64,000 nt of DNA from Schmidtea polychroa (lineage: Eukaryota): the NCBI GenBank assembly GCA_044892525.1, contig CM097886.1:84754001-84818000 (forward strand). Direction: 5' to 3'. The translations under genes were made by a program, and so were the position numbers. The notes under the pieces were generated by a model. It was not told where the DNA came from and did not search any database. It worked only from the letters and a program-made list of their open reading frames with translations. Shown here in pieces: positions 5,463-64,000 of the stretch. Within the stretch, counting starts at the first letter, position 1; the number at the start of each line of letters is the position of its first letter.

Positions 5463-6567
5463 TTTGATTTTAGATTTTAAAATATTCGTTTATTAAATAT
5501 TAATACTTGATAATTTAAATAAACGGAAATAATTNNNNNNNNNNNNNNNNNNNNNNNNNNNNNNNNNNNNNNNNNNNNNNNNNNNNNNNNNNNNNNNNNN
5601 NNNNNNNNNNNNNNNNNNNNNNNNNNNNNNNNNNNNNNNNNNNNNNNNNNNNNNNNNNNNNNNNNNNNNNNNNNNNNNNNNNNTAACAAATATAAAAGCA
5701 AATAAAATTTTTAAACTAAAAAATTTACCTTTGATGAAATTTTAGACACAATTTTTTTGTTGTCAACTTGCTCTCAGTTTTCGATTTATGCCATTGTGGT
5801 AGGTTTGTTTTGTGTGAAATGATTTTTAAGTTAATAAATTTTTACATTTAATTTAGTTGTTTTTGTTCTTTTTATCATTCATTTCTAGTTTAAATTTTTA
5901 TGTTTTTTGAGTAATTTTAATAGTTATGGTGGAGTGGAACTTACTATTAGCCAAGGATCAGGAGAAATTCTCTGTCTTCAGATCTTGTGGGTTAAAGGCA
6001 GTTTCAAACACCCAGCTGATTTGATTTGTCACGGAGGGCCTTCGTCGAGTTGATCGCTGACATCTTTTTATGGATTATAGTGAGTTAGGCTAGTAATCAA
6101 GAAAGTAAGATCGATTGTAAGTAGAGAAGATTTAGTTTTGGGGTAACATTATAGAAACATCGAGTAACTAGGATTAAATATAGGTCAGAATAAGAAATAT
6201 AGGCAGATCCCTGTTCAAATTTTCCGAAGAATAAGTCGAATATCCTTAAACATTGCAGAAAGTATAGCACAACATTTACGAACAAGAAAATAAGGGCAGA
6301 TCCCTGCGCAAAATTTTCGAAAGTAACATCGACTAACATCCAGCAATGAGGACCACAATAAAATGAATAAATGAATGGCAATAATCTAAGAGATAGATAA
6401 TGAACAGTGACGTAAGACCTTCTATCGGTAGTCCAGAAACTGAGAATGAAAATAAAATGAGGAGTAGTTTTAGCAGTAGAGCTCACCTGCTCATTGATTT
6501 TCAGATATTGTTTACATCACCAACATAATTGTTTCCATGGTTACGCAGATGGTATAAAGTAAAATAG

Positions 6568-6800
6568 TGGTGGGTTACAGGTAAGTATACCTTTTACGTA
6601 TTCGTGCTGTTTCCAGTGTAACCCAGAATACAAACGATTGCTTCTCCGCTTGATACCCGTTGAGCGATCAACGTTGGTACTGAATCAAGAGGGTGAGTGC
6701 TCGCAAAAAATGAGCGCGCTACTTGCACTATAATTGTCGAGCACTCCTTTGGGTTCACGAACTACCGTTAGAAGGTTTATGTCCGCTTTACATGGTCCCT
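6568..6800 (-). ncRNA. Conserved structured RNA motif, copy B
   Basis: Aligns by eye with 46905-47135(+) and 49577-49806(-). Stems are GAGUGCUCG/CGAGCACUC and CGUUGA-UCGC-UCAACG, with the AGUACCAA loop (plus strand 6674-6681) and a CUG-GAAA-CAG hairpin. Confidence 0.7.
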
Positions 6801-7714: not shown

Positions 7715-10175
7715 GCTTGCTTTCGTGGCCACACTGTGCTCAGTACAACAAGCCCTAGTGTTATGTAAGCAATGCAGCTACAGCCGAACCAAAAAAGCCC
7801 GTTTTAACCACAAATAGATCAATTTGAATCATATTTACCACCAAACTAAGTTGGTCACCACGAAGTATTTTAAAGCAGATACACTACACCGTTTACACAG
7901 TGCAGTCAACCGCCACTCCGGGTTGGTAAATCATTTTAATTCTTGCATTTGCAGGTTGTGGACCTCATACACTAGCATAGATGCTAGATTAGTTGGGATC
8001 TCGTGTTGAAATTGTCAACAACGGGGATCTCGGTCAATCCGTCATTGATAAAGATTAGAACATAATGATTAAAAAAATTGTCTGTAAACATGATAACTCA
8101 TATATTAATGAAAATCCCTTACTTACAATCTCAGAAAAATCAAGATCAAAATTTTGGCATAGGAGTAAGCATTTAAAAGTGACAAAATGTGTTAGTTTAT
8201 ATAGTCTCTGTTTGGTGTGAAAGTAGGCATGCGTGCATTGATGCAGTAAAACAAATTCGAATTATTTTAATTCTCGAACATTCGATTTTTAATTTTTATC
8301 GATTTTGATGGCGATTTTTCAGTAAGAATTTTTGTTTTTCTTTTTGGGATTTTGTTTTTGAATTATTTTTTATTAAATTTGCCTCCATGATGGATTTCAG
8401 CATTTCCAGAACATTCCATGCTAAATTTAATCTATTTCTTATTTTGAAATTATTTTTTATGATTTCTTTTCTAAAATTTTTATTTTTTATAAATTTTATT
8501 GAGTTGTTTGGCGGTCATGATGGATTTCGCCATTTTTATGAATTGTTCTGGATTTTTATTCAAAATATCGATATAATTTTCTTTACGGAAGATTTTATGG
8601 AGATTTTCTTTAATTTTCTTTTTTAATTTTTACTAATCGCCTTTATTCGAATTTGTTTTTGTTGTTTTATGTCTTTCGGTTATATTTGAGTAAGTTTTTG
8701 TGTAATGCTTCTTGCTCGTGTTTTATTTTATTTTTAATTCAGATGTTTTATTTTTGGGTATATTATCTCTCTATTATCATTGTTTACTTGGTGTTTTTAT
8801 ATATTTTTATTTAAGTGAACTTAATGCTGGGTATGTGTGTTGTGTACTGACACTTTTCGTCCTCTTCCTAACTTTGGGTTTAGAAATCAGTTCTAACCCA
8901 GCAATAGTCATGAAGTCGTTTGAGAAAGAGTTGATTGAAAATCCATAAGAAACCCCATTTTGGGCTAGAACTGATTTCTAGACCCAAAAAACTAAGTTCA
9001 TGACTAAAATGTGTCGGTACATAACCTGCAACTCAGCACTAAGGTAAATTAAAATCAAAACATATAAAACACCAATTAAACATTAATAATTAAGAAAACA
9101 ACACACAAAAAATTAAAACATCCAAATAAATATAAAATAAACCCAACAAGAAGTATTGCACAAAATCCTACTCATATATAGCAGAAAAACATACAAACAA
9201 CCGAAAACAAATCCGAATAATGGCAATTTGAAAAATTAAAGAGAAAATTAAATAAATAAAGAAAATTATTTAGAGAAAATTACAGCAAATTTCAATTATA
9301 AAACCCAGAATAATCCATAAAAATGGCGAAATCCATAATGGCCACCGAACGACCTAATAAAATTTATAAAAATAAATATTTTAATTAAAATATAAAAATA
9401 TTTTTAAGGAAAATTTACAAAAAACAATTTCAAAATTAAAAATTGGAATCAATTTAACATGGAATGTTCTGAAAATGCCCAAATCCATCATGGATGTAAA
9501 TTTAGCAAAAAAATAATTACAAAATAAAATTTTGATAAATAAAACAAAAATTATTGCGAAAAAACCGCCAAGAAAATTAATAAAAATCAAAACTAGAAAA
9601 TTCTAGAATTAAAATAATTCTGATTTGTTTTACTGCACTAATACATGCACACAAACTCACACACCAAAAGTAAGGCATATATACCGACGCATTTCAGTCA
9701 CAGACACACTCTTCTTAGCCAAATTTATTTTGTGTAATTTTTGGAAGAAATCGATCAGTAAGGAACTTTCATTACTATATGTGTTATCATGCTTAAAAAT
9801 ATTTTCTTTTTTTTATCTTCAATTTTCATCAATGATCTAAAACTAACTAAAACTCCCGTTTTTGACAATTTCAACACGAGATCCCAACCAATCCGGCATC
9901 TATACAATTATATGAGGTCCACAACCTGCAAACACAAGAAGCAAAATGATTTCCAACCCGGAGTGGCGGATGACTACACTGTGTATACGGTGTGGTGTAC
10001 CTGCTTGAAGATACTTCATGGTAACCAACTTAGTTAATGAAACCATGCTTGATGATAAACATAATTCTAAATAATTTATTTGTGGTTATAACGGGGTTTT
10101 TGGTTCGGCTGTAGCTGCGGTTCCTACATAACCATAGGGCTTCGAAGTACCGTGTCGAGTCGGCCGGGAAATCAA
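7715..10175. mobile_element. Foldback-type element: ~2.4-kb imperfect palindrome
   Basis: Paired inverted blocks: 7780-8030 vs 9860-10120, 8180-8330 vs 9560-9710, 8390-8430 vs 9460-9490 and 8500-8560 vs 9300-9350. The centre has TAGAAATCAGTTCTA / TAGAACTGATTTCTA. No coding capacity and no TSD were identified. Confidence 0.8.
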
Positions 10176-23819: not shown

Positions 23820-23934
23820 AGTTATGTAAAGTTTTGTTTGAATAATATTCGTTTTAATGTGTTTTTGAAAAATATATTTTATTGAATTATTATTGATTTA
23901 TTTTATGAATTTAGAAGTTGAGGACATCATAACT
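23820..23934 (+). repeat. 5' LTR (AGTTATG...CATAACT)
   Basis: Direct repeat of 28270-28384 with a 7-bp perfect terminal inverted repeat. Confidence 0.93.
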
Positions 23935-46323: not shown

Positions 46324-46818
46324 TTGATTCTATATTTTAATTCAGTGTACAAACTGTTCGAAGGACTCCGGAAGGACAGGGAGCAGGCGCAGCAGCAGGC
46401 GGAGCGGCTGCAACTTAGCGTCAATCAGTTCAAGGAACGCTGTCGGAAGATGGAGCAGACTTGGATTCGCCCTGAGGTGGCACACAAGTACTTGAGACAG
46501 ATTGAACAACTGCAGCTCCAGAGTACCCAAGACAAAACCGAAATACGAGCCCTAAAAATACAGATGCGGGCCATGGAAACAAAATTAAATCAGCGGGCCA
46601 TCGACGAGCACGTCACGGCAGCTATCCGGCCCATGACGATAGAACTGGCCGAAATGCACCCAACCAAGCCCAAGGCCAAGCGAAAACGACTAGGCCGGGA
46701 TGGTCGTGAGCGACTCAAACGACTGAGACTAGCAGAGCAAAGATTAGAAGAAGAGGCAAGAAAGTCAGTGCTACTTGACAGTTCATGTGCAGGACCGATG
46801 GATGTAAATAAAACGTAG
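46324..46818 (+). CDS. Accessory ORF B: coiled-coil + basic (NLS-like) protein; 5' end probably spliced at 46345
   Basis: KERCRKMEQTWIRP motif and KAKRKRLGR. It is homologous by eye to 50763-50972(-) and, more weakly, to 58725-59483(+). Confidence 0.62.
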   Translation: MILYFNSVYKLFEGLRKDREQAQQQAERLQLSVNQFKERCRKMEQTWIRPEVAHKYLRQIEQLQLQSTQDKTEIRALKIQMRAMETKLNQRAIDEHVTAAIRPMTIELAEMHPTKPKAKRKRLGRDGRERLKRLRLAEQRLEEEARKSVLLDSSCAGPMDVNKT

Positions 46819-46904: not shown

Positions 46905-47135
46905 GGGACCAATGAAATCGGACACAAATCTTCTACCGATAGTCCGTGGACCCAAAGAGTGCTTGACAATTATAGTGCAAGTAGTGCGCTCACTTTTTGC
47001 GAGTACTCACCCAGTTGACACAGTACCAACGGTGATCGCTCATCGGGTGTCAATTGGCGAAAGCAAGCTTGTATTCTGGGTTACGCTGGAAACAGCACGA
47101 AAGGGTGAAATGTCTGACCACCTGTAACCCACCAA
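46905..47135 (+). ncRNA. Conserved structured RNA motif, copy A
   Basis: Stems are 46957-46965/47000-47008, 47015-47021/47047-47053, 47030-47035/47040-47045 and 47077-47084/47124-47131. The loop AGTACCAA is at 47022-47029 and GCTG-GAAA-CAGC is at 47085-47096. Confidence 0.75.
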
Positions 47136-49576: not shown

Positions 49577-49806
49577 TGGTGGGTTACTGATGATTAAATA
49601 TTTATTCTTTAGTGCTGTTACCAGCGCAACCCAAAATAAAACATTGTTTTACCGCTTGATACCCGTTGAGTAATCAACTTTGGTACTGTATCAAGTGGGT
49701 GAGTACTCGCATAAAGTGAGCGCTTTATCGGCACTATAATTTTCGGGTACTCTATGGGTCCACGGACTACCGTTAGAAGACATGTGTCCGATTTACTCAG
49801 GTCCCT
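49577..49806 (-). ncRNA. Conserved structured RNA motif, copy C
   Basis: GAGUACCCG/CGAGUACUC, CUUGAUAC/GUAUCAAG, GUUGA-UUAC-UCAAC, AGUACCAA (plus strand 49680-49687) and GCUG-GUAA-CAGC. Confidence 0.75.
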
Positions 49807-51049: not shown

Positions 51050-51179
51050 TTATATAAATATTGTATTTTAATAAATATTATATTTCTGTATGTTAATGTA
51101 TTTTTTTTAAAATAAGAGGTCGATCTTGAAACCAAAAAGTAGCTCTGGCCATGGAAAAGTTTACCGACCCATTCTATAC

Positions 51180-52430
51180 CAGGGGTCGGTAAACTTTTCT
51201 ATGGCCAGAGCTACTTTTTGGTTTCAAGATCGACCTCTTATTTAAAAAAAAATATTAACATACAGAAATATAATATTTATTAAAACAATTAATGTGATGA
51301 ATGGAATTGGTTTTCATTCAATAGTTTCTTCATATCCGGAGAATAGTTTGTAACTGCCAATCTTAAACAATTATCCAGATTTTTATTGGTAAGTTATGTT
51401 CGATATTTATACTTTATGAATTTCATATTTGAAAATACGGATTGACACAAGTACGTTGATCCAAAGAGTCAAAATATTTTTAATGCAACATCTCTTAAAA
51501 ACGAATACTCATTCGGTGTTACATGGCTCCAAAATTCCAATTGATTTTCAGAAAATTCGCAACTCAACTCTATATCATTTGGTATTGAAATTAATTCCAT
51601 TTTTAGCTGTGCTTTATCATATTGGTTATTAATAACTTCCAAGAGAGTTTCGATATTAATATTTACGAAAGGATACATAAAAAATTTCACAATTGGTTCG
51701 ATGTTGCGAAAATTTGCGAAGCGTTTTTCAAACTCTTCTAATAAACTAATAACAATTGGTCAACAACTTTCACAGAAAATGAGTTAAACTATTAATCTCT
51801 TCTTTTAAATTAGTAAAGTGTTTCAAATCATATTCTATTAGGTTGATTTCCCACATGATTAATTTTTGGTTAAAACATTGCACCGCACTTATCAAATGCA
51901 TTATATTTTTATCTTTCCATTGCAGATATGCATTTAATTCATTTAATCTCACCGTAATATCAGTAAGAAACGCTAGATCTCTAAGCCATGAATCATTGCT
52001 TAGCTCCTGATGACTTCCTTTCAAAAATAAACTTATTCGTGGTAACAATTCTCTAAAACGCTTTAAATATTTTCCCTTACTTAGCCAATGAACTTCTGTA
52101 TGTAATAACAGATCACCATATTGACAATCGAGCTCGCCGTTAAGTCCTTTAAATAAACGTCTTTGCAGTGATTTTCCTCTTAAAGAATAACTAATTTTGA
52201 CTACAAGTTTCATAACAGAATTCATGTTCAAAAATTTAGCACAAAGGGCTTGCTGATGTATTATACAGTGATAACTTATGAATTCAGGATATCTTTGATC
52301 TTTTTTTACATAATGCAATAAAAATGCAATAGGGAAAACTAAATTAGAAGTTAGTCTTTTCTCTGAGTCCGGTATGACAGTAGGCATGGTTGGTTTTGCA
52401 GGGATTTACGATGCTGGAATAGCAACGACC
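51180..52430 (-). mobile_element. 5'-truncated, decayed hAT (Charlie-like) element
   Basis: TIR CAGGGGTCGGTAAACTTTT at 51180. Fragments include YHCIIHQQALC, EVHWLSKG, DLAFLTDI and FGSTYLCQSVFS, with stops and frameshifts. Confidence 0.85.
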
Positions 52431-52767
52431 TGTTAGTAACAACATTAAAACAAAATTTTAAATATTTATTCTTTTTAATAATTGTAACAAATTAATTAAT
52501 TTGCAAAAAAAATTAATCTTTGAATTAAAAATTACTTATTTGTTTGTTAAATATTAAAATATTTTATAATTAAAAACATCTAAAGTTTTGTGAATCTTTG
52601 AAAACAATATCGGGCATTTCTTGAATTATTTTTAATGATTTTAGTTTAAGATTATAATTTCAATAGAATTCAATCAAAAAATATATATAAATTTTACTGA
52701 ACATATTCGTTTATCTGAGGCTTGTTTAAATAATACAAATTTTTATATTTTATTTGAATAAAGTTTA

Positions 52768-53729
52768 ATGTATTACGACAATCAAATTTTTAATAGTGCT
52801 CTTGAAGACTACACAAGGTAGTATATTAATTTATAAATTAGTTTTAATGCTATAAAATTTTATTAAAGAAATGAAAATATTGGTGGAGATCTGACATGTA
52901 AAATGCGAAAAACAGGAACTACAATCGTTGGTGTCCGCTTTGCAGTATGAATTATGAATTATTTATTTCTTATTGTAGTTTAGGATGGAATTGTTTTAGG
53001 TGCAGATACAAGAGCAACTGAGGGAAATATTGTCGCTGAAAAAAATTGTCAAAAGATTCATTATATTGCGGACAACATTTAGTAATATTATTATTGATTG
53101 TTTTTTATTAACTAGCTTAAATTAGTTGTTGTGGAGCTGGAACTGCCGCAGATACTGAATTTGTTACAAGGATTATTTCATCTAAAGTAGAATTACATCG
53201 TTTGCAAAATGATTCTCGAAGAAAACCTCGTGTTGCAATGGCTACACGTATGTTGAAACAATATCTTTTTCGATACCAGGGATATGTTGGAGCTGCTCTT
53301 ATTTTGGGCGGAGTTGATTTCGAAGGTCCAAAATTACTTTCTATACATCCACACGGTTCAAGTGACGCGTTGCCATATGTAACAATGGGCAGTGGCTCAT
53401 TAGCAGCAGTTAGTGAATTGGAAAGTTTGTATCGTCCGAATCTTACCAGAGAAGAGGCGATGGAGCTTGTAAGGCGGGCTATTAGGAAAGGAATTGATCA
53501 TGATATGGGATCTGGTAGTAATGTTGACTTGTGTATAATAACAAAAGATAGAACTGAAAATATAAGAACATATGAAGAAGCTCACAAAAAAGGGCAGCGT
53601 TTAAACAAGTATCACTTTTCTGCCGGGACAACACCTGTATTGAGATCTTGTGTGCGTCCAGTTGAGATGGATATTGTTTCAACGCGAATAATCCGAGATC
53701 TTCCACAGGAAGAAATGGAAATATCATGA
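52768..53729 (+). CDS. PSMB7: Proteasome subunit beta type-7 (beta2), 275 aa; exons 52768-52817, 52869-52944, 52984-53081, 53126-53729
   Basis: RKTGTTIVG (catalytic Thr), [24 protein letters not shown] and [16 protein letters not shown] introns of 51, 39 and 44 bp give an 828-nt CDS. Confidence 0.95.
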
Positions 53730-54850
53730 TTTATTAATTTGGCAAATAATTCAGTGTTTTGTTTGAATAAAATATAATAATATAATTGTTTCTCTCATTT
53801 TAGCATTATTTAATTATTAAATTAATGTTTTATTGAAATTTTGTATACAGATGCTTGCAATTGAGGTTAATTTTGATGGCCTTTTGTATTGTTTTTTATG
53901 CTGTTTGAACATTATACTAATTGATTGATTTTTCATTTGTTGTTGTGCCGATTTATTCATGCTTGCTTGTGAACTACATGCTGAAAGGAGGATTTTGTGA
54001 AACGTAGTGGCCATCGAGACATTCCATAGGGATAAGGTAATATGAAGTTCAATTCGATACATCTAACTATCAAATGAAAGTAAACCCATGCTGCATAGCT
54101 ACCAACAAAGATTGTAGAACGGGATATAGTCACTATAGTTTAGTTAAAAATGCCGAATGAACCACCTTCAAAATCATTGGCAATTAATCACAAACGATTT
54201 AGACATATCGGTAGAATGATAGGAGGATTGATTTATATGTATGGGTGCACCAAAACGTTCGCGAGAATGCCAGAGAAATCAGTCAAACCTTTCAAAAATG
54301 CACCAAGAACAGACAAGATTCGTACAACCAGTAAAGAGAGTGATAAACCGGATCAATTCCACCGCAACAATGTCTTTGGACCAATCTTCCAAAAGCCTGA
54401 TAGGTAATTATTGTGAAGTTTTAATTTTATTAGTAATAGTGTAATTATATATGTAGTAATCGTATGTTGTATATATGTGTTTATATATTTTGTGCTGATA
54501 TACGTGTTATAAAAGATTTTGTTAGAACCCAGCCGAGTCTCCTTTAAAAATGATGTTTCAGGACATCTGGGGTGTTTGTATGCCGATTGCTTTAAAACAA
54601 ATTTTATTAAACAATTCAAATAGATATTTAATTTCTTCAAAACTTTTCGACTATAAAATAGCTCTTGTCAATTTCCAAGGGTTATCTTATTGTCGAAAAG
54701 TTTTTCATTTGTATTAAGTATATTATTTGCAGCAAAAGGCTTAAATTATCATTTAATTGCTTATAATATGAATATTATAATATAATAATTAATAATATAA
54801 CAAATATTAATAGTAGAAATATTTAAACTTATTTATAAAAAGCTCATCTT

Positions 54851-55463
54851 CCAGTGGCGTAGTGAGCATAATTAACGCCCAGGCAGCATGCCATTTTCGC
54901 GCCTCCGAAAGAATGCAGAAATATCTAAAAGAATCTTTCTGTAATTGATCCTATCACACGCTCTATTTTTACACAACCATTGTTTATCAAACCATTTAAC
55001 GTGTCCAATAACTTGAGATTGAGCCATGATTGAATTGGAAATATTGGATAATTGTTCAACACTTTGGCGAATAAACATTTGAATTTAGTTGATCTTTTTA
55101 AGAGCGCGATTAAATAGAATATCATATTCATAAGTTAGCAAGTTTATCTTTTTATCGCTAATGTCATAAATGATTTCAGATAATTCACGAATATCTTTAA
55201 ATCTTTGGGGAAATTTCTTAAAAATATCTTGGAGTTCCTCTTCTGTCATTTCATGATTTACAGAGATTAAATCGTTGATTTCCAATCGTTTTGATAAACC
55301 TCCATTAATCATTTGCAACGACCTTGTTGAGCCACGATCACATGGACAAGTTTCACTGCTGGAAAGACATGTCTTCGCGCAACAGATACAAAACGCATGT
55401 CTACAACTTTCAAATATTAACGCCCAGGCAGCATGCCATCTTCGCGCCTCCGAAAGAATACAG

Positions 55464-55554: not shown

Positions 55555-55845
55555 GATATTTTTTTCCAATTTCAACACTAATTATTTTTTCCATTGAATT
55601 AACTAAAAAGAGAGCTTGAAGAATATAAATCAGTAATGTATAGATGTTTTTGATACTCACGAATTTTCGGCACTGCCTTTTTCAAGTGAATTTTAAAAAG
55701 CAAATTTTGTAACAATTAAAATAAATATTTAATTTAACATGAAATACAAAAACAAGCTAAATTAGCTTATAAAACGTTTATTCAATTATATAAGTAAGAA
55801 ACTTTAAAACATATGCTGAGCGAAACTAGTATCTGTTGGGCTAAA

Positions 55846-56563
55846 CTTCGAGAGTGTCGAAAATCGGGCTAAGAACGAATAAATAGGATAAAACAAATTT
55901 TCAATAAAATCACGAGAAATATAAGAATAACTAAATCAGATAACAATAAAAGAAATAAGAATATAAAAGAAATAAAAATAACTAATAAAACAATAGAATG
56001 CATAAGGCGAAATAAGGTGAAATTACCCAACACACATGGTAGGAAAAGGAAAAAACATAAAATAACAAAAACGTAAGAAATAAACGAGAAATTTAAGAAA
56101 ATAAAATAGAAATCCTCAAATAAATGCATACGCGAATTAAAACAAAAATTATATTATGATAAAATGACAATAAACGCGCAGGAAAAACGGGAGGGAAATA
56201 ATAAAAAATAGAAAAATAAATAAAATAATAATAAAAATAGGAAAAAGTCATCAAAATATACCTTATTACATGAAAAAACATAAAAATCATAATAAATAAT
56301 AATATTACACGCAAGTCACGTCCTGATTGGACGAAAAATAATATATAAGGAATATGGAAAATCTGTAAAGTACCACTTTTAATCGCTACTCTACAGGTAA
56401 AAATTTTTATTGTTTTATACGACCACTTTTAATCGCTACTCTACAGCATCCACTTTGACTACGATTCAACGAAAACAAAATCGACTACCAGTATCTAGCG
56501 GAACCAAAAGGAAAACGATTTAGTAGAATCTTGAACATTACCATTTTTTGACACTCTCGAAGG
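55846..56563. mobile_element. MITE-like element
   Basis: Inverted ends CTTCGAGAGTGTCGAAAA / TTTTGACACTCTCGAAG. An internal 25-bp direct repeat ACCACTTTTAATCGCTACTCTACAG occurs at ~56371 and ~56422. Confidence 0.5.
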
Positions 56564-56889
56564 ATATTATTTGGTAAGTATGGTGATTGTTTTAAATGCT
56601 TTTTATGATGATGATATTAAATATTTATATGAGTTTGATATGGAATAAATTCTTTTAGTATATTAAATGTTTTAAGTTTCGAAAGATGTTCCTCTCTCTC
56701 TATGGTGCTGGCGACGATGTCGTCTGGGACTCCAATATGATGCGGGAAATCAAATAAATCCGTGGACAAAGCCACGAGGATGGCGGCTAGAAGTGACATT
56801 GAAAATCGGGACGAAGCTAGATTTATAGCAATAGAGTTGATTGAACGATTGTGATTATTATGGGACGGCATCATATTCGAGACTCAGAC

Positions 56890-56902
56890 GGCGTGGTCGC
56901 CA
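56890..56902 (-). promoter_or_regulatory. Orphan primer-binding-site-like sequence TGGCGACCACGCC
   Basis: 13/13 identical to the PBS of the gypsy element at 23934. It is preceded on the minus strand by an AT-rich stretch with several AATAAA. Confidence 0.5.
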
Positions 56903-58724
56903 GACAAGTAAATTTTATTATAACGATTAATTTCATAAAACCATGCCATTTATTTAATCGTATTTATTACAAAAATGTTCTGAAATTGACGAATTGAGGA
57001 GATCGAATCGTCCTTCCTGGCGGTCTAAGGATGGTGGCAGCGATGATTGCCGTCCTTAGGTGGGTCAGGAGGGGTGAGGACATACGGCGGACGATATTAC
57101 CACTGCACGGGAAATTCTGTCACTGAGTGATGTCTGCGTTCGGCATAGGAAATACTATTTTTGGAGAAGATGAAATTAAGGCACCTGAGGCAAATAAAAA
57201 ATCCACAGAGATTCGCCGGAGAGATTCGAAATACAATTCTTTAAAATTTGGCATAATCATCATTTTGTTAAGTCCAGGTTCGACATCGTTACGTCTTAAG
57301 TCCCCGAGTTACAGTGGGCTGAACACGAAGGGATCATAGTCTTCGGTTGCAAACAGAAAATTCCAACGAGATTAGAGTAGACTGTCACCAAGCTTTTCGG
57401 TAGGGATTTGGATCGCTAAGGAGTTAACGACAAAATCCATCATCGGTGTACTTTTAAGTTGAATTGTTGATTCTTAGGCTATAGATAAGGATTGTTTTTC
57501 TGAAAATAGAGTAAATAAATCCTGAGAAATTATCAGAACACCTACGATAGATGCGAGGGAAGCCGTTGTCGAAGTTATCAGATAACTGCCAAATGAATTT
57601 CAGTCTGATTATACCCAACCGAATTAGATGACTAAAGGGAATCTGAACAGTGAGAGAGAGCGATAACCGTCATCACCATAGATACAGCGAGAGCGTTGAC
57701 AGACGGGTATCTTAAGTCGACTACGATAGTAGATAAATTATCAGCTCCAATTCTCCAGTGATTTGTCGCGTAATGGGTAAGGCTGACACGCATAACGAAT
57801 CGGGTAGAGATTTCTAAGAGTCCGGATCTTGATAATACACGCCTACCAGTACGTCACATGGAATTCCCTCTCAGTATGCCGCCAACCAATCCACATAAAA
57901 AGAAAATTTGTTCGGTGACCTAATCATTACATAACAATGACGAAGTTAAACGAGATAGTAGCATTGCGTGTAGGGACAACAGGGGAGATCGTATCCCCGT
58001 AAATAATTTTGCTAGGAGTATTAGACAGCCACTCTCGAAAACATAATCCGAGCCAGACACACCAAGACATAGTGGTCAACAGAATAGTAGAAATTGACAA
58101 TACACAAGCATGCATTGCAACACATCATATTCAGCACTCAAGTAAATGACAGTATTTAGTCACAACCACATACTGTGTTAGATTCGTCATGACAACCTCA
58201 CGGCAAAAATCTGAACTAAATAAAATTTTCAATTCACGCAGTTCAAATAAATATATATTTTATGATTTCGTTTTCAATTTCGATCAATATTAAAATAATG
58301 CAAAGAAGCAAGGCCGAAATTTTTGTTATTTACACAAACTTAACTTCATAGAACTTAGTAATGAGGAGTAGACTTATCAATGTTGGACAATAAGGGATAT
58401 ATTAATGGTGTTAAAGGTTATAGTACTCGAACGATGGAACATTATAAAGGGGAGGTCAAGCCCGTAAAATTATACCGATTGATGAAACTATAATAAATGA
58501 ATTCTGTCTAAAATTCCCATTTTCCTCTCATAAAATTGTAAAGAACGAGTGAGTTAACTTGAATGTTTGAGTTTGAATGAATACGAGTATCGATCAACGA
58601 CACGGGTGTGTAGATCACTATTGAATAGTTTGATTTGGAAACTTGTAAATCTCATATGCGAAATGCAAATAACGTTCCAGAAAAACTGTTACGATCGACA
58701 ATAAATTTTTCTCTTAATCTTTAG

Positions 58725-59483
58725 ATGAATACCTCGACCAGCTCTGGAAAAATTCCTCGTCCTTGTTTCTCCTGCGCCGATAAAAATGCAGATATCGCGC
58801 AGCTCCATCTATACATCGGGGCTCTAAAGAAGAGAATTGACCTCTATGAGGGTACGTGGTTCTCCCCGCCACGAATGAAGGAGGAACGAAAGAAAATCCT
58901 CCGGTTAGAACATTGTAGAGATAGCTTGCTGGAGGAAAGCCGATGCCAACGGCTTACAATCAAAGCCCAATCGGAAGCCCTCCACAAGGTATACACGGAG
59001 GCAGAACTGGCCAAGCGGGTTCGGGAATTCCCCGTCTTAGATAGCTCTAACATTTTCCCACTGCATCATCAGACGTCTCAAGTAACTACATCGAACTGTC
59101 AAGGGCATGGCTCTTATCTGCCGCCCATTCCAGCCCCGGTATTATCTGGATGTCAGCCGCTGGCAGGTGGCTCTTCCGACCCAATTTTGGCTCCAGTGTT
59201 GTTGGCACCCTCCGCCGCATCTATCGCGAATAACCAGATGTCTTCCCGCAAAAGGAAACGGCCAACCCGGGCCGCCAAGAATCAGAAACGTCGAGATGCG
59301 ATGGCAGCACTGGAGGCTTCGTTATCCGTGGCCCAGTCCACCATCGAAGAGATTTCGAGCTCGCATGTGATTCCAGCCAGAGAAATATTTCGAGTAGTGC
59401 CGGCCGACGGTATTAAGTACCTCGCAGATCGTCGCTTACCTGTGGACATTGATGAGGTGTTCGCAGACAGTGAAGCATTTTGA
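58725..59483 (+). CDS. Accessory ORF B-like protein, 252 aa (CxxC, coiled coil, Pro/Ser-rich linker, basic RKRKR)
   Basis: The ATG directly follows CTCTTAATCTTTAG. LKKRIDLYEGTWFSP parallels FKERCRKMEQTWIRP of 46324-46818. Confidence 0.65.
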   Translation: MNTSTSSGKIPRPCFSCADKNADIAQLHLYIGALKKRIDLYEGTWFSPPRMKEERKKILRLEHCRDSLLEESRCQRLTIKAQSEALHKVYTEAELAKRVREFPVLDSSNIFPLHHQTSQVTTSNCQGHGSYLPPIPAPVLSGCQPLAGGSSDPILAPVLLAPSAASIANNQMSSRKRKRPTRAAKNQKRRDAMAALEASLSVAQSTIEEISSSHVIPAREIFRVVPADGIKYLADRRLPVDIDEVFADSEAF

Positions 59484-59783
59484 TGGAGCTGGAGCAGCAG
59501 CGGGACGTGTCCGTCCGATTTGACATGCGTATTGACCGACTCTCTTGTATATGGCGAACACTTGTTTTATTCTTTTGTTTTTGTGCTTCAGACTTTGATG
59601 AAAGAAGTTTGATTATTTGTAATTTAATGCGTGTAATTTAATTTAATATAAGTATGGACATTTAATGAGTTATTTTACGAGAATGATGAGGGAAACGCCC
59701 GATTTGATTGATGAACCGAATGGATGACATTGAAGGAAGGTTGTCCCCTCGGACCAGGGTCGACCCGAGAATGAATGAGATTA

Positions 59784-59925
59784 TGGGTAAGTCCTTCTAA
59801 GGCACCTTAGAACCTGTACCGCGAGTGGGTTAAGAGTAGTCCTAAGGCAGGGGCTCACCTGTTAACCTACTCCAACCCGTGTGAGCAGCACCAACGTGGA
59901 ACACCGCCACGGGCTCACATGAGGG
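59784..59925 (+). ncRNA. Conserved structured RNA motif, divergent copy D
   Basis: Same topology with different stem sequences: GAGUAG/CUACUC and UGUGAGC-AGCACCAA-CGUGG(7)CCACG-G-GCUCACA (59880-59919), with an upstream CUUCUA..UAG hairpin. Confidence 0.68.
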
Positions 59926-60463
59926 AATATTAATAAGGTCATGTGATGTATGTTGGGTAAATCTGAGACCGATGTATGGGATTGCATGTCCGACTACGAA
60001 AATATTTCTTCTCCCCTTCATACACCAACATGATTTTTGGGGGTTCAGCCGGGATCTGATTTCGAATTGTTTGATTGCCTATTATTGTATTACGATGTGT
60101 TAGACTAACAATTTAATTAATTATAATAAAAAAGGGAATCGGGACGGAAATGAATCGATATTATAGTGTATTAAGATGATGATACGAACTGTTTTTGCGT
60201 GAAATAGAACATGCTATGAACAAAAACGAACCTAAATAAGTTTGAATGAATGTGATTGAATATGAAGAGAAGAGAAAATGGGAATTGACTAATTTTGTTT
60301 AATTTTAAATGAATTAAATTAAAAAAGAATTATTAAAGATTGAATAAAATACATAAACTAGAAACAATAGCGAACAAAGCCAAACGAACATTGATTATAA
60401 CACGATAATATTATTTTTATTTTTATAAGTGAGACCGAGTAATGACAACATACTTTTTTAGAT

Positions 60464-60943
60464 ATGTCAGAAGCTAGGAAACATCTACAACGACTAAGCC
60501 GGTTCGTCGACATAGAAAACGATTCCATAAAGACGTTAAGAGAAAAACTGCAACAAATAGAAACCCTAGAGCAACAACGCCACAACGCACCGCTGATATC
60601 CAAACAAAACTTTCTAACCGACAGATTGGGGTCAACAAATACCGACACCGACTTGTCTGTCCATTACCAATGGATGCAGCAACGACTCGACGACCCCGCT
60701 CTGAACCTCGAATATGTGAGAATACGCGAACAAGTAAAAACTCTGTCTCAGAGAATACGAACCTCGATAATAGAAAAAGCAGCGGCCTTGAGAACTTGTA
60801 ACATTTGTAAGACGCGACCTGCCAGAATTCTAATTCTACCTTGTGGACACCTTAGCCATTGCGACGAATGCGCCGTCAGTTTAACGCATTGCTCTTTATG
60901 TGTATGTGCAATAAAGGAGAAGCACACGATTTACTTCAGTTAA
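60464..60943 (+). CDS. Coiled-coil + C-terminal IAP/MDM2-type RING (C3HC4) protein, putative E3 ligase
   Basis: CNICKTRPARILILPCGHLSHCDECAVSLTHCSLCVCAIKEKHTIYFS ends the protein. No BIR domain is present. The ATG lies 2 nt after TACTTTTTTAG. Confidence 0.8.
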   Translation: MSEARKHLQRLSRFVDIENDSIKTLREKLQQIETLEQQRHNAPLISKQNFLTDRLGSTNTDTDLSVHYQWMQQRLDDPALNLEYVRIREQVKTLSQRIRTSIIEKAAALRTCNICKTRPARILILPCGHLSHCDECAVSLTHCSLCVCAIKEKHTIYFS

Positions 60944-61524
60944 CACGCGAGCAGCACTCGGTGAAAGAATTGATCTGATTGACGATTTGACTAAATCCTT
61001 TATTTTTAATTGATGTATCAACAATTTTCTAGTAAATTTGTATATTGCATGTGACTTAAGCCAACTAATGAATAGAATGTTTTGCGTGTTCATTTTATTG
61101 TGAATTCAGTAACTTATTGATAATTTTCACCATAGAGAGAGAGCATCTATAAATTTAATTTGAACAAATAAATAAAGTGGAGCTAGTCCCAACATAGGAT
61201 TAAAGGGGGAATAAACCGAGCCACCTTCGGGAGGTACGATACACGAAAACCGGTTGGGAAGGGATAACCGATCACCCCGAGTAAGAGATGTAAGGCGAGG
61301 TACCATCGCGAATATTGAAAAGTTTCTGCGGTATGGCTGATCACCATACCAATGTAGAAATGGATCAATGCGATCGTTTTGCGTTTTGAGCAAGGGGGGA
61401 AAGGGGAAACATTCTCAAGCGGCACAGATTAGATCGACAAATAAAAAGTAAAAATAAAAGGAAAGATCACAGTCTAGAATAAAGGTAAAGAAAAGATAGA
61501 AGCATGCAGAGTCGAAGATATTGA

Positions 61525-62017
61525 GGCCGAGCTGTTGAATAGTCCAGCCGGCCAGGGAAATTGAAACTGAGCTGTGAAAAGTCCAGCCAGTCAGGAGATA
61601 TTAAGGCCGAGTTGTTGAATAGTCCAACCGGTCAGAAGGAAGAAGATTGAGCTGTTGAAAAGTGCCAGCCAGTCGTAAGGCCGAGCTGTCGAGAAGTCCA
61701 GCCGGTCAGGAAAAATTAAAAACTGAGCTGTGAAAAGTCCAGCCAGTTCGGAGACGAAGAAGATTGAGCTGTTGAAAAGTGCCAGCCAGTCGTAAGATCG
61801 AGTTGTCGAATAGTCCAACCGGTCAGAAGGAAGAAGATTGAGCTGTTGAAAAGTGCCAGCCAGTCGTAAGATCGAGTTGTCGAATAGTCCAACCGGTCAG
61901 AAGGAAGAAGATTGAGCTGTTGAATAGTGCCAGCCAGTCGTAAGATCGAGTTGTTGAATAGTCCAACCGGTCAGAAGGAAGAAGATTGAGCTGTTGAAAA
62001 GTGCCAGCCAGTCGTAA
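61525..62017 (+). repeat. 74-bp tandem repeat array built from two ~37-bp subunits, upstream of gag
   Basis: GAGCTGTTGAA recurs at 61766, 61840, 61914 and 61988 (period 74). Earlier units are more diverged. Confidence 0.92.
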
Positions 62018-62964
62018 AGGCCTAGAAAATGATTGGATAGGATTTAAGTTGATAATGAGATAGAATATTAAGCTAGCTAGAAACGAATTGAATTGGGATA
62101 CGAGAAGTCGAATTTAGAAAGGATTAAACGAGCTCGTAGAAGATGAAAACAAAACCATTTTAGTAGAAAAGGAGAATCGGACAAGGAAAATGAATTGAGG
62201 AGATAGTAAAGGTAGAGGATAAGTGGGAATAAATGACGAGTAAAAAGGAAGATAATTAATTAATTAAAGGGGATCCCAAGTAAGTAGACAAAAGTCTACA
62301 GAATTTTTGGTTTAAACCGGATAAACGAATCTGATTTTTTTTGGTTCAGAGTAGAACCGAGTAAAGGGGAACAGAGACGAAAGATTAAGTAAAATAGCGG
62401 AACCGCGTAAAAGGATTAAGAGAATATGGGGGGTGATAAGCAGTAACTGACAACGACCTATCGTTATTATAAATGGGAACTATAGATAATTGATACGACC
62501 ATATAGATAATTATTACTACCCCAAATAGATAATTTAAAATCGACGAAAACTATGGGTTGATGGGTAACTATAATCCACGAGGAATTATATGGGGAATAA
62601 AGAGAAGCATAACAGAGGCCCTAAACGGTGTCTGTGTTTGAATGTTGCAGAAAGAATGATGAAGTCGTGTAAGCAGATGCAACACGAGATCATTTTTTCA
62701 TTTTAGATATCAAACCAATCCAGTCAATCAAGCCAATCCAGAACCTGCACAAAGGAATTCGAAGAAATCAACGACCAACTAGAAATAACCAATCCAGAAC
62801 CCGCTCAGTAGGAGTAACACAACCCGAAGATTCCAAGAACGGAAGACGTCTCATAACGCTAACAACCAATTGCCAAGGACTCGGAACACCGACAAAACCG
62901 AATTCGCTCAAGTCAGCAGCCGCTAATTGCCGAGAAATCCATAAGAGACGATAAGGAGGCGTAA

Positions 62965-64000
62965 GAAGAAATCACGGAGAAACTAAATCTCAGATCCTCA
63001 AGTAAGTCAAGAGACGTATTATTTTCAGGAGACGAACTAGAACAGCTCAGAAGAGGACGATCCATAAAACAGCAAAGAGGAAGATCACAAGGAGCAAAAA
63101 GAACAAATCAAGTACCAACATTTGACCAAGAAAACCTCGGATACACCCCTAGTCGATCTAGAAGCAGAGAAAGCCTATCCGATATAACAAACAACCTAAC
63201 CGGGTCAACAGAAGAATTAGCCGTCTATAATTTAGCGACATCGCTGGAAAATTTAAAAGAAACAATAGAGTTACAAGAACCAGTCATGATGAATGTGGTA
63301 AAAACCGACGAGTATAAAGAAAAATTTAGAGGCGAACCGTTTAACGGGAATGCGAACAAGTTGGCAACGTTCATAACAAATTTTGAAGTCTATATCGATG
63401 TGTGCGGATGGACAGCGGAAGCAATTAGTAAACGAATGCCTCTGTTTTTGTGCGATAGCGCACTCGAAGTGTATCTAGAAGCAAAAGAAAGAAATACGAA
63501 ATTAGACAATTGGGAAAGCATCAAAACATTTTTGAGAAAAACATTCGGGGCCAGCAAACCAATAAATCAAGCCCTAGGAGAATTAGCGAGTAGAAAACAA
63601 AGAGCAAATGAATCAATAACGTTATACGCAAGCGAATTGCGAAGATTGGCAAAGAAGGCCATGAACGGAAACTTGCCGGAGGAGAATCTAATTGGTTATT
63701 TCATAGAAGGATTACGCCGGGAAGAGGTAAGAGCCTCGGTGGGATGTCAGATGTGTAAAACACTAGAAGAGGCCATAGATTGGGCCACAAGATGCGAACT
63801 ACACCTCCCGGCACAAATGAATATCATGCAGGAGGAGGGAAGAATCGCAGCAGCTACGGTGAAAACAGAAAATGGAGATAACAACAATCATGAACCCAAG
63901 ATGAATCAGTTCATACCAGGTGCGCACCAAATTTTCAAACCACCGCAAGGACGATCAAACGGGAATAACAGTGAACGCAACAACTCGAACAATGGAAATA
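62965..64000 (+). CDS. gag: Ty3/gypsy-type Gag, runs off the window (ATG at 63286; not in the ORF track)
   Basis: The frame is open from 62965: FRGEPFNGNANKLATFITNFE..CGW..WESIKTFLRKTFG..LASRKQRANESITLYASELRRLAKKA..LIGYFIEGL, a retrotransposon gag pattern. Confidence 0.88.

Follow-up and report, generated by a model that had tools for sequence, protein, structure and literature searches.

A covarying three-domain RNA near the 3′ LTR termini of giant Burro-like Ty3/gypsy elements in Schmidtea polychroa, possibly involved in docking of primer tRNA-Pro

Features beyond the primer-binding site (PBS) have been described in the leaders of several retroelements, including the PAS and the A-rich loop of HIV (available sections of PMC3185550 and PMC11181671), contacts with the T and D arms of the primer in Ty3 (PMC5371799, section 2.1), and a second PBS in Gypsy (available part of PMC1635307). 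MLV is primed with tRNA-Pro, and the available sections of PMC3185550 describe no extra contacts for it. What selects one primer tRNA, apart from the 18-nt PBS, is a matter of debate even in HIV-1. In planarians, Burro and GYPSM1 are giant gypsy-like LTR elements (PMC6431247, available part), and the accounts of Burro in the available text of PMC6431247, PMC11410931, and PMC8532177 mention no RNA structure in the LTR. Furthermore, the RNA motif reported here was found undescribed in the searched literature on Burro, planarian LTRs, and structured RNAs or ribozymes, while the supplements of the original Burro paper might cover LTR features. This report is focused on one copy of the motif, copy D, in a window of 64,000 nucleotides of S. 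polychroa DNA (contig CM097886.1, forward strand), in which an original prediction had placed a fold in four copies, A to D. The copies in the window and the element that bears copy D are as follows.

6402-6560, plus strand: copy E, a fifth, decayed copy (search with the A-C model, 23.8 bits)
6637-6790, minus strand: copy C (search with the A-C model)
46914-47066, plus strand: copy A, in another LTR family, the LTR end lying ~70 nt further on (search with the A-C model and LTR comparison)
49643-49795, minus strand: copy B (search with the A-C model)
55834-60030, plus strand: 5′ LTR of 4.2 kb, TGTTGG...CCAACA, target-site duplication TATC (direct repeat)
58725-59483, plus strand: ORF of 252 aa in the LTR, without a Pfam family, with a Lys/Arg-rich stretch
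59784-59925 (match span 59779-59932), plus strand: copy D RNA (covariance model match)
60038-60055, plus strand: tRNA-Pro PBS, 17/18 Watson-Crick pairs and one G-U
60464-60943, plus strand: RING-finger (C3HC4) accessory ORF in the leader (domain match)
62965-63999, plus strand: start of gag (Retrotrans_gag, Ty3 capsid), running off the window (domain match)

The second LTR of the D element lies 26.4 kb downstream, outside the window, and since the two LTRs are 99.7% identical, the insertion is young; the element comprises ~30.6 kb in total. A fusion glycoprotein of the Monjiviricetes (Mononegavirus-type; PF24664, E 4e-71) is encoded in the same ORF as protease, reverse transcriptase, RNase H, and integrase domains (RVP, RVT_1, RNase H, and rve) and precedes them in that order. 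MATH/TRAF, ankyrin (weak), and RING domains are carried as cargo between the LTRs, and no BIR or dUTPase match was obtained in the domain search of the element. The size of ~30 kb, the multi-kb LTRs, the glycoprotein between gag and the protease-RT-RNase H-integrase block, and the TRAF/MATH and ankyrin cargo are shared with Burro/GYPSM1 as described in the available part of PMC6431247. By contrast, a single polyprotein of ~4,900 aa is described there, whereas the polyprotein region of the one D element copy examined reads as ORFs of 676, 502, 2126, and 661 aa. By its domains and layout, the D element thus appears to fit Burro/GYPSM1. Each copy in the window forms the 3′ end of an LTR, and the LTRs come from different multi-copy families of giant Ty3/gypsy elements; copy E is truncated directly after P3 by the LTR end that bears copy C. 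Copy D, predicted to be a highly diverged fourth copy, is a version belonging to another family of Burro-like giant Ty3/gypsy elements in a young insertion, not a decayed copy. Its predicted flanks were right for the RING ORF downstream, whereas the upstream ORF (58725-59483), described as resembling ORF B, has no significant similarity to the ORF at 46450-46818 (BLASTP E 0.73).

Several further observations concern the element and its surroundings. CCAAT/TATA-like signals occur near the 5′ end of the LTR (56326-56348), the TATA-like box being 3.4 kb away from the motif. Acceptor-like pyrimidine-AG tracts, read by eye, stand directly before the LTR ORF (58700-58727), the RING ORF (60405-60466), and the gag region (62690-62710), and because these tracts precede ORFs, expression of the element by splicing is suggested. 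The leader between the RING ORF and gag contains tandem repeats of ~74 nt (61510-62017). Elsewhere in the window, an ORF cluster at 31183-39147 with double-jelly-roll, integrase core, adenoviral protein X-like, and parvo-type phospholipase A2-like domains looks, by its domain content, like a Polinton/adintovirus-like element in pieces, and a small Ty3/gypsy element (23820-28384) with 115-bp AT-rich LTRs and a different PBS has no motif match. A 2.5-kb block (52428-54927), presumably containing a proteasome beta-subunit-like gene, has a 99.7% identical inverted copy just past the far LTR of the D element. A near-perfect palindrome of 220 bp (51066-51285) and an imperfect inverted repeat of 2.4 kb (7750-10142) are probably derived from DNA transposons.

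The fold of copy D is composed of three hairpin domains, P1 to P3, followed by a fourth, variable domain.

59785-59806, plus strand: P1, a short outer stem, a GUAAG internal loop, and a CC/GG stem closing a UUCUAA loop
59795-59812, plus strand: alternative hairpin competing with P1 in the D clade (UUCUAAG/CUUAGAA)
59810-59816, plus strand: GAACCUG box, complementary (one G-U) to T-arm positions 50-56 of tRNA-Pro
59823-59872, plus strand: P2, a long covarying stem, a U/CAC internal loop, and a hairpin closed by AGU/GCU with a variable loop
59876-59925, plus strand: P3, a covarying stem with a capping hairpin; in its 8x1 internal loop, AGCACCAA faces a single G (59912)
59891-59894, plus strand: invariant CCAA, in which the Pro codon CCA is followed by A; its complement is found at positions 33-36 in the anticodon loop of tRNA-Pro(UGG)
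59941-60030, plus strand: fourth, variable domain, predicted to be closed by LTR-terminal sequence (predicted folds only)

All the pieces named in the original prediction for copy D are present at 59784-59925, which lies 105 nt inward from the 3′ end of the 4.2-kb LTR. Copies A, B, and C were located by the P3 loop and then aligned, and a covariance model (R1) was built from these three with the originally proposed structure and searched against the whole window with filters off. The model recovered copy D at rank four with 30.8 bits and E 7.8e-6 (the E-values of this search are rough); the best score below the five copies was 12.1 bits, on the antisense of copy C, and the best unrelated site scored 10.8 bits. 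A sequence-only HMM from the same A-C alignment did not return copy D at E ≤ 10, and recovery is therefore carried by structure. Copy D had been called barely alignable to A-C; its alignability is indeed weak, but it is 59-62% identical to them, compared with 52% for shuffles, and outscored all 200 shuffles. The folding z-score of copy D is -3.36 on the plus strand and -0.11 on the minus strand. With copy B folding better on the opposite strand and both strands of copy C folding well, the copies share no single strand preference.

Parts of the proposed structure required correction. The CUA..UAG hairpin, said to occupy the same place in the order of elements in all copies, is formed in different registers in A-C and D, and the families share another pairing, in which an RYAA internal loop separates an outer stem from CC-UUCUAN(C)-GG. 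The outer stem of P1 varies among GAC/GUC, GAG/CUC, and GG/CC, and its loop reads U-U-C-U-A plus one or two bases. This loop appears T-loop-like; its fourth base is a pyrimidine, unlike that of tRNA. The long hairpin that the P1 loop and the following box can form in the D clade is a possible switch. The supposed ACCC linker is partly paired and extends P3, whose internal loop reads AG-N-N-CCAA opposite one G. The claim of a full replacement of P3 was overstated: five of seven pairs differ from copy A on both sides, but not all pairs do, and the innermost C-G is invariant in 30/30 aligned sequences. The tips of P2 and P3 vary freely.

Selection on structure, as originally proposed, is borne out and extends well beyond the four copies in the window. 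The pattern GCTCA, 27-32 nt, AGYACCAA yielded 5741 genome matches compared with 53 for the reversed pattern; a first look gave 2255 genome candidates for copy A and 1084 for copy D, the latter often in pairs ~26 kb apart and 91-100% identical in the 40 scored. Helices P2b, P3a, and P3b are kept in 93 of 106 fetched genomic loci. For covariation, 48 representatives at 92% identity were reduced to 30, with 15 dropped because P1 was unparsed and three because of a wrong register, and an R-scape-like null was used in which substitutions are relocated along the tree. Twelve of the 38 proposed pairs covary at E < 0.05 (one in P1, five in P2, and six in P3), compared with 0 of 4813 other column pairs (best E 1.4, 30 sequences); no covarying pseudoknot or cross-domain pair was seen in these 30 sequences, in a test blind to invariant columns. 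There are ~30 near-invariant nucleotides in three modules, but motif invariance within the 30-sequence set is not evidence in itself because the alignment was hand-anchored on motifs fixed by the search. An Rfam mir-753 match above the gathering score was observed beside the LTR end of one fetched locus (L103:589-642), in keeping with a planarian host.

The position of the motif was established independently of the motif itself. Among 70 loci chosen by the PBS alone, 69 carry GCUCA and CCAA 112-173 nt upstream of the PBS on the same strand, and the P1 loop is present in 68; the single locus without the motif is interrupted by other sequence. These loci fall into ~18 clusters and hence are not 70 independent events. 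In nine LTR pairs from several families (a tenth, unparsed, was left out), the sequence common to both partners stops 114-160 nt past the P3 loop, beyond which one of the two runs on into the same PBS. We infer a placement in R/U5; no fixed TATA or AAUAAA position was found upstream of the motif. Contigs of runs presumed to be RNA cover the motif, one of them into the PBS, and are uninformative on ends, strand, and splicing; no canonical splice joint was found in them. Outside this genome, a 20-base pattern gave at least 27 viral and at least 117 metagenome matches. None of 100 of these was matched by the A-C model at E ≤ 1, and only 2/141 passed a three-helix filter, both without P2a; they were dismissed as chance, and no homologue was found among the viral or metagenome contigs listed.

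The primer is identified by the PBS, which matches the 3′ end of a tandemly arrayed tRNA (2183 genome pattern matches, control 0). This tRNA is tRNA-Pro(UGG) in the one array checked for it, the only checked array whose 3′ end fits the PBS. The tRNA-Pro(UGG) tandem arrays have a 475-bp unit (L115 and neighbours, G000:C1 ~130.9 Mb), and tRNA-Lys(UUU) and tRNA-Arg(UCG) genes are likewise arrayed. When the P3 loop was left free in the search, CCAA occurred in 95 of the first 100 matches listed, with the two preceding bases varying by family. Changes of the first C gave 91 matches (control 9), those of the third base 28 (control 2). Such departures from CCAA occur in lone copies dispersed among ~3,400, and the genome yielded no family with a different primer or codon. 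After P1, most families carry GAACCC(G), complementary to T-arm positions 50-56. A T-arm box is present in 55/68 parsed PBS loci and the remaining 13/68 have a pyrimidine-UAR D-arm box (a loose pattern from few families); families without the T-arm box have a D-arm-complementary box near the LTR end, and in families other than that of copy D the fourth domain carries such a box. The GAACCUG box of copy D is, by inference, PAS-like.

These complementarities were assessed by duplex energies in 27 clusters against shuffled tRNA arms, twelve such tests being run in all. No shuffled D arm of 100 was as good as the D arm against the downstream region, one of 100 shuffled T arms was as good against the linker, and 17/100 shuffles were as good in the upstream control; one clade has up to 15/16 complementary bases. 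Under a stricter null, in which the LTR region is shuffled, p ≤ 0.05 was obtained in only 2/19 clusters for the D arm and 7/22 for the T arm. tRNA-Pro was better than three other tRNAs of the genome in 13-15/19 (D arm) and 14-17/22 (T arm) clusters. The whole anticodon arm showed no excess pairing in the 27 clusters, and a cis stem between the linker or box and the PBS flank showed no covariation (p 0.90). Pairing of the linker with the PBS 3′ flank was rejected, being good in two families but with cognate pairs no better than permuted ones, and so was cis pairing of the linker with the fourth domain as a general feature (only 4/19 and 2/12 at p ≤ 0.05). In most families, a GGACC/GGGACCU word recurs 20-60 nt upstream of P1; it is complementary to the variable-loop region of tRNA-Pro, but its order does not allow a single continuous helix together with the T-arm box.

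The best explanation, to which a probability of about 0.4 is given, is that this three-domain LTR-end RNA, standing in the 5′ leader, captures or positions primer tRNA-Pro for reverse transcription. P3 would display CCAA for pairing with anticodon-loop positions 33-36 of tRNA-Pro(UGG). The T arm, after being opened by the PBS, would pair with the box that follows P1, or else the D arm would pair with a box nearer the LTR end; the UUCUA loop of P1 and the U/CAC loop of P2 may supply tertiary or protein contacts. Sequence complementarity lends moderate support to such tRNA contacts. Against docking, CCAA is only 4 nt long, was noticed post hoc, and could just as well form a cis pairing with UUGG at the edge of the PBS; to our knowledge, all tRNAs have GGUUC, and the changes that wobble tolerates are at the same time the most frequent transitions. 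Moreover, the most invariant parts (the P1 loop, U/CAC, and AG..G) are unexplained by tRNA pairing.

Invariant internal loops, borne on covarying stems in a leader beside the PBS, would also suit a packaging or dimerization signal in which asymmetric loops bind the Gag/nucleocapsid of the element and select full-length RNA, and retroelement leaders are known to hold such signals (available parts of PMC4974528 and PMC5454406). This reading is rather unlikely: there is no conserved self-complementary apical loop, as the tips of P2 and P3 are free to vary, an LTR-internal signal could also occur on spliced RNAs, and the loops are near-invariant across families whose stems are replaced. An element for RNA export, splicing, or polyadenylation, either of the Rex/Rec type for the basic LTR protein or as a U1 site (GUAAG of P1) controlling LTR poly(A) as in foamy viruses, is unlikely. 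A-type families (7/30) keep the fold with ACAA-like loops lacking GU, no relationship was detected between the LTR ORFs of A and D in spite of the invariant RNA loops, and AAUAAA has no fixed upstream position, although GUAA(G) is found in P1 of 23/30 sequences, the LTR ORF has its Lys/Arg-rich stretch, acceptor-like sequences (by eye) precede ORFs, and a precedent exists (available part of PMC3694450).

It is quite improbable that the motif is a T-box-like RNA machine in which CCAA of P3 holds the anticodon and the T-loop-like P1 the elbow of folded primer tRNA-Pro, with the tRNA then being concentrated and passed on to the PBS. The CCA-A of the P3 loop would fit Pro(UGG), by complementarity, as a specifier codon plus purine of the T-box type, and a codon plus purine in a side bulge and a possible T-loop motif may be shared with the T-box riboswitch as described in the available part of PMC7583486. 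However, there is one T-loop-like loop only, without a second T-loop, K-turn, S-turn partner strand, or antiterminator bulge, in a eukaryotic retroelement context and without an Rfam match, and the motif was rejected as a true T-box for its lack of features given in that part of PMC7583486. Were this reading true, it would mean tRNA capture by RNA shape in a eukaryote, evolved by an animal retroelement. A new self-cleaving ribozyme trimming the RNA near the PBS is very improbable, since three hairpins stand side by side with no junction, no pseudoknot or cross-domain pair covaries (a test blind to invariant columns), the long polyproteins encoded would need capped RNA, and no Rfam ribozyme was matched; in its favour are the ~30 near-invariant nucleotides in three modules and the hammerheads in retrozyme LTRs (available part of PMC4918200). 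No Rfam 15 family matched a copy of the motif in the window (E ≤ 1) or in 12 loci (E ≤ 10), and likenesses to twister-sister, hairpin ribozyme loop A, U1/U2 snRNA, and the Pol III B box were discarded as fitting only a few bases. Even less credible is an IRES that would supply ribosomes to the ORFs downstream of an extended leader. Such a leader is conceivable, given the ORF upstream in the LTR and the distant TATA-like box, but there is no pseudoknot and no start codon at a fixed distance, and in D an acceptor-like site precedes the next ORF, which starts ~540 nt further on.

Under primer-tRNA docking, the closest comparison is the PBS-segment of HIV-1. A structured leader upstream of the PBS is common to both, and the order of T-arm box (predicted), 4-nt anticodon-loop match, and PBS corresponds to that of PAS, A-rich loop, and PBS, as far as described in the available HIV sources. 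By contrast, the planarian motif has three separate covarying domains 110-270 nt from the PBS, its anticodon match is part of an 8x1 internal loop, covariation is lacking for a cis stem that would close a PAS, and the two have no sequence relation. With their complementarity to the primer's T and D arms, the additional boxes resemble the extended, bipartite primer binding of Ty1 and Ty3, whereas the PBS of Ty1, Ty3, and Gypsy is short or split in the available accounts, and here a full 18-mer PBS is found and the boxes flank a conserved fold. The motif marks the LTR ends of the Burro-like clade in planarian genomes, and its dozens of natural family variants with one primer are a ready mutational series. 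It is a real, selected cis-acting RNA, apparently undescribed, and of a kind to be expected in an element family that is already known. Structured leaders next to the PBS are no surprise in LTR elements; what sets this one apart is the many invariant loop bases together with supported covariation over thousands of copies, a combination absent from Rfam and from the papers searched.
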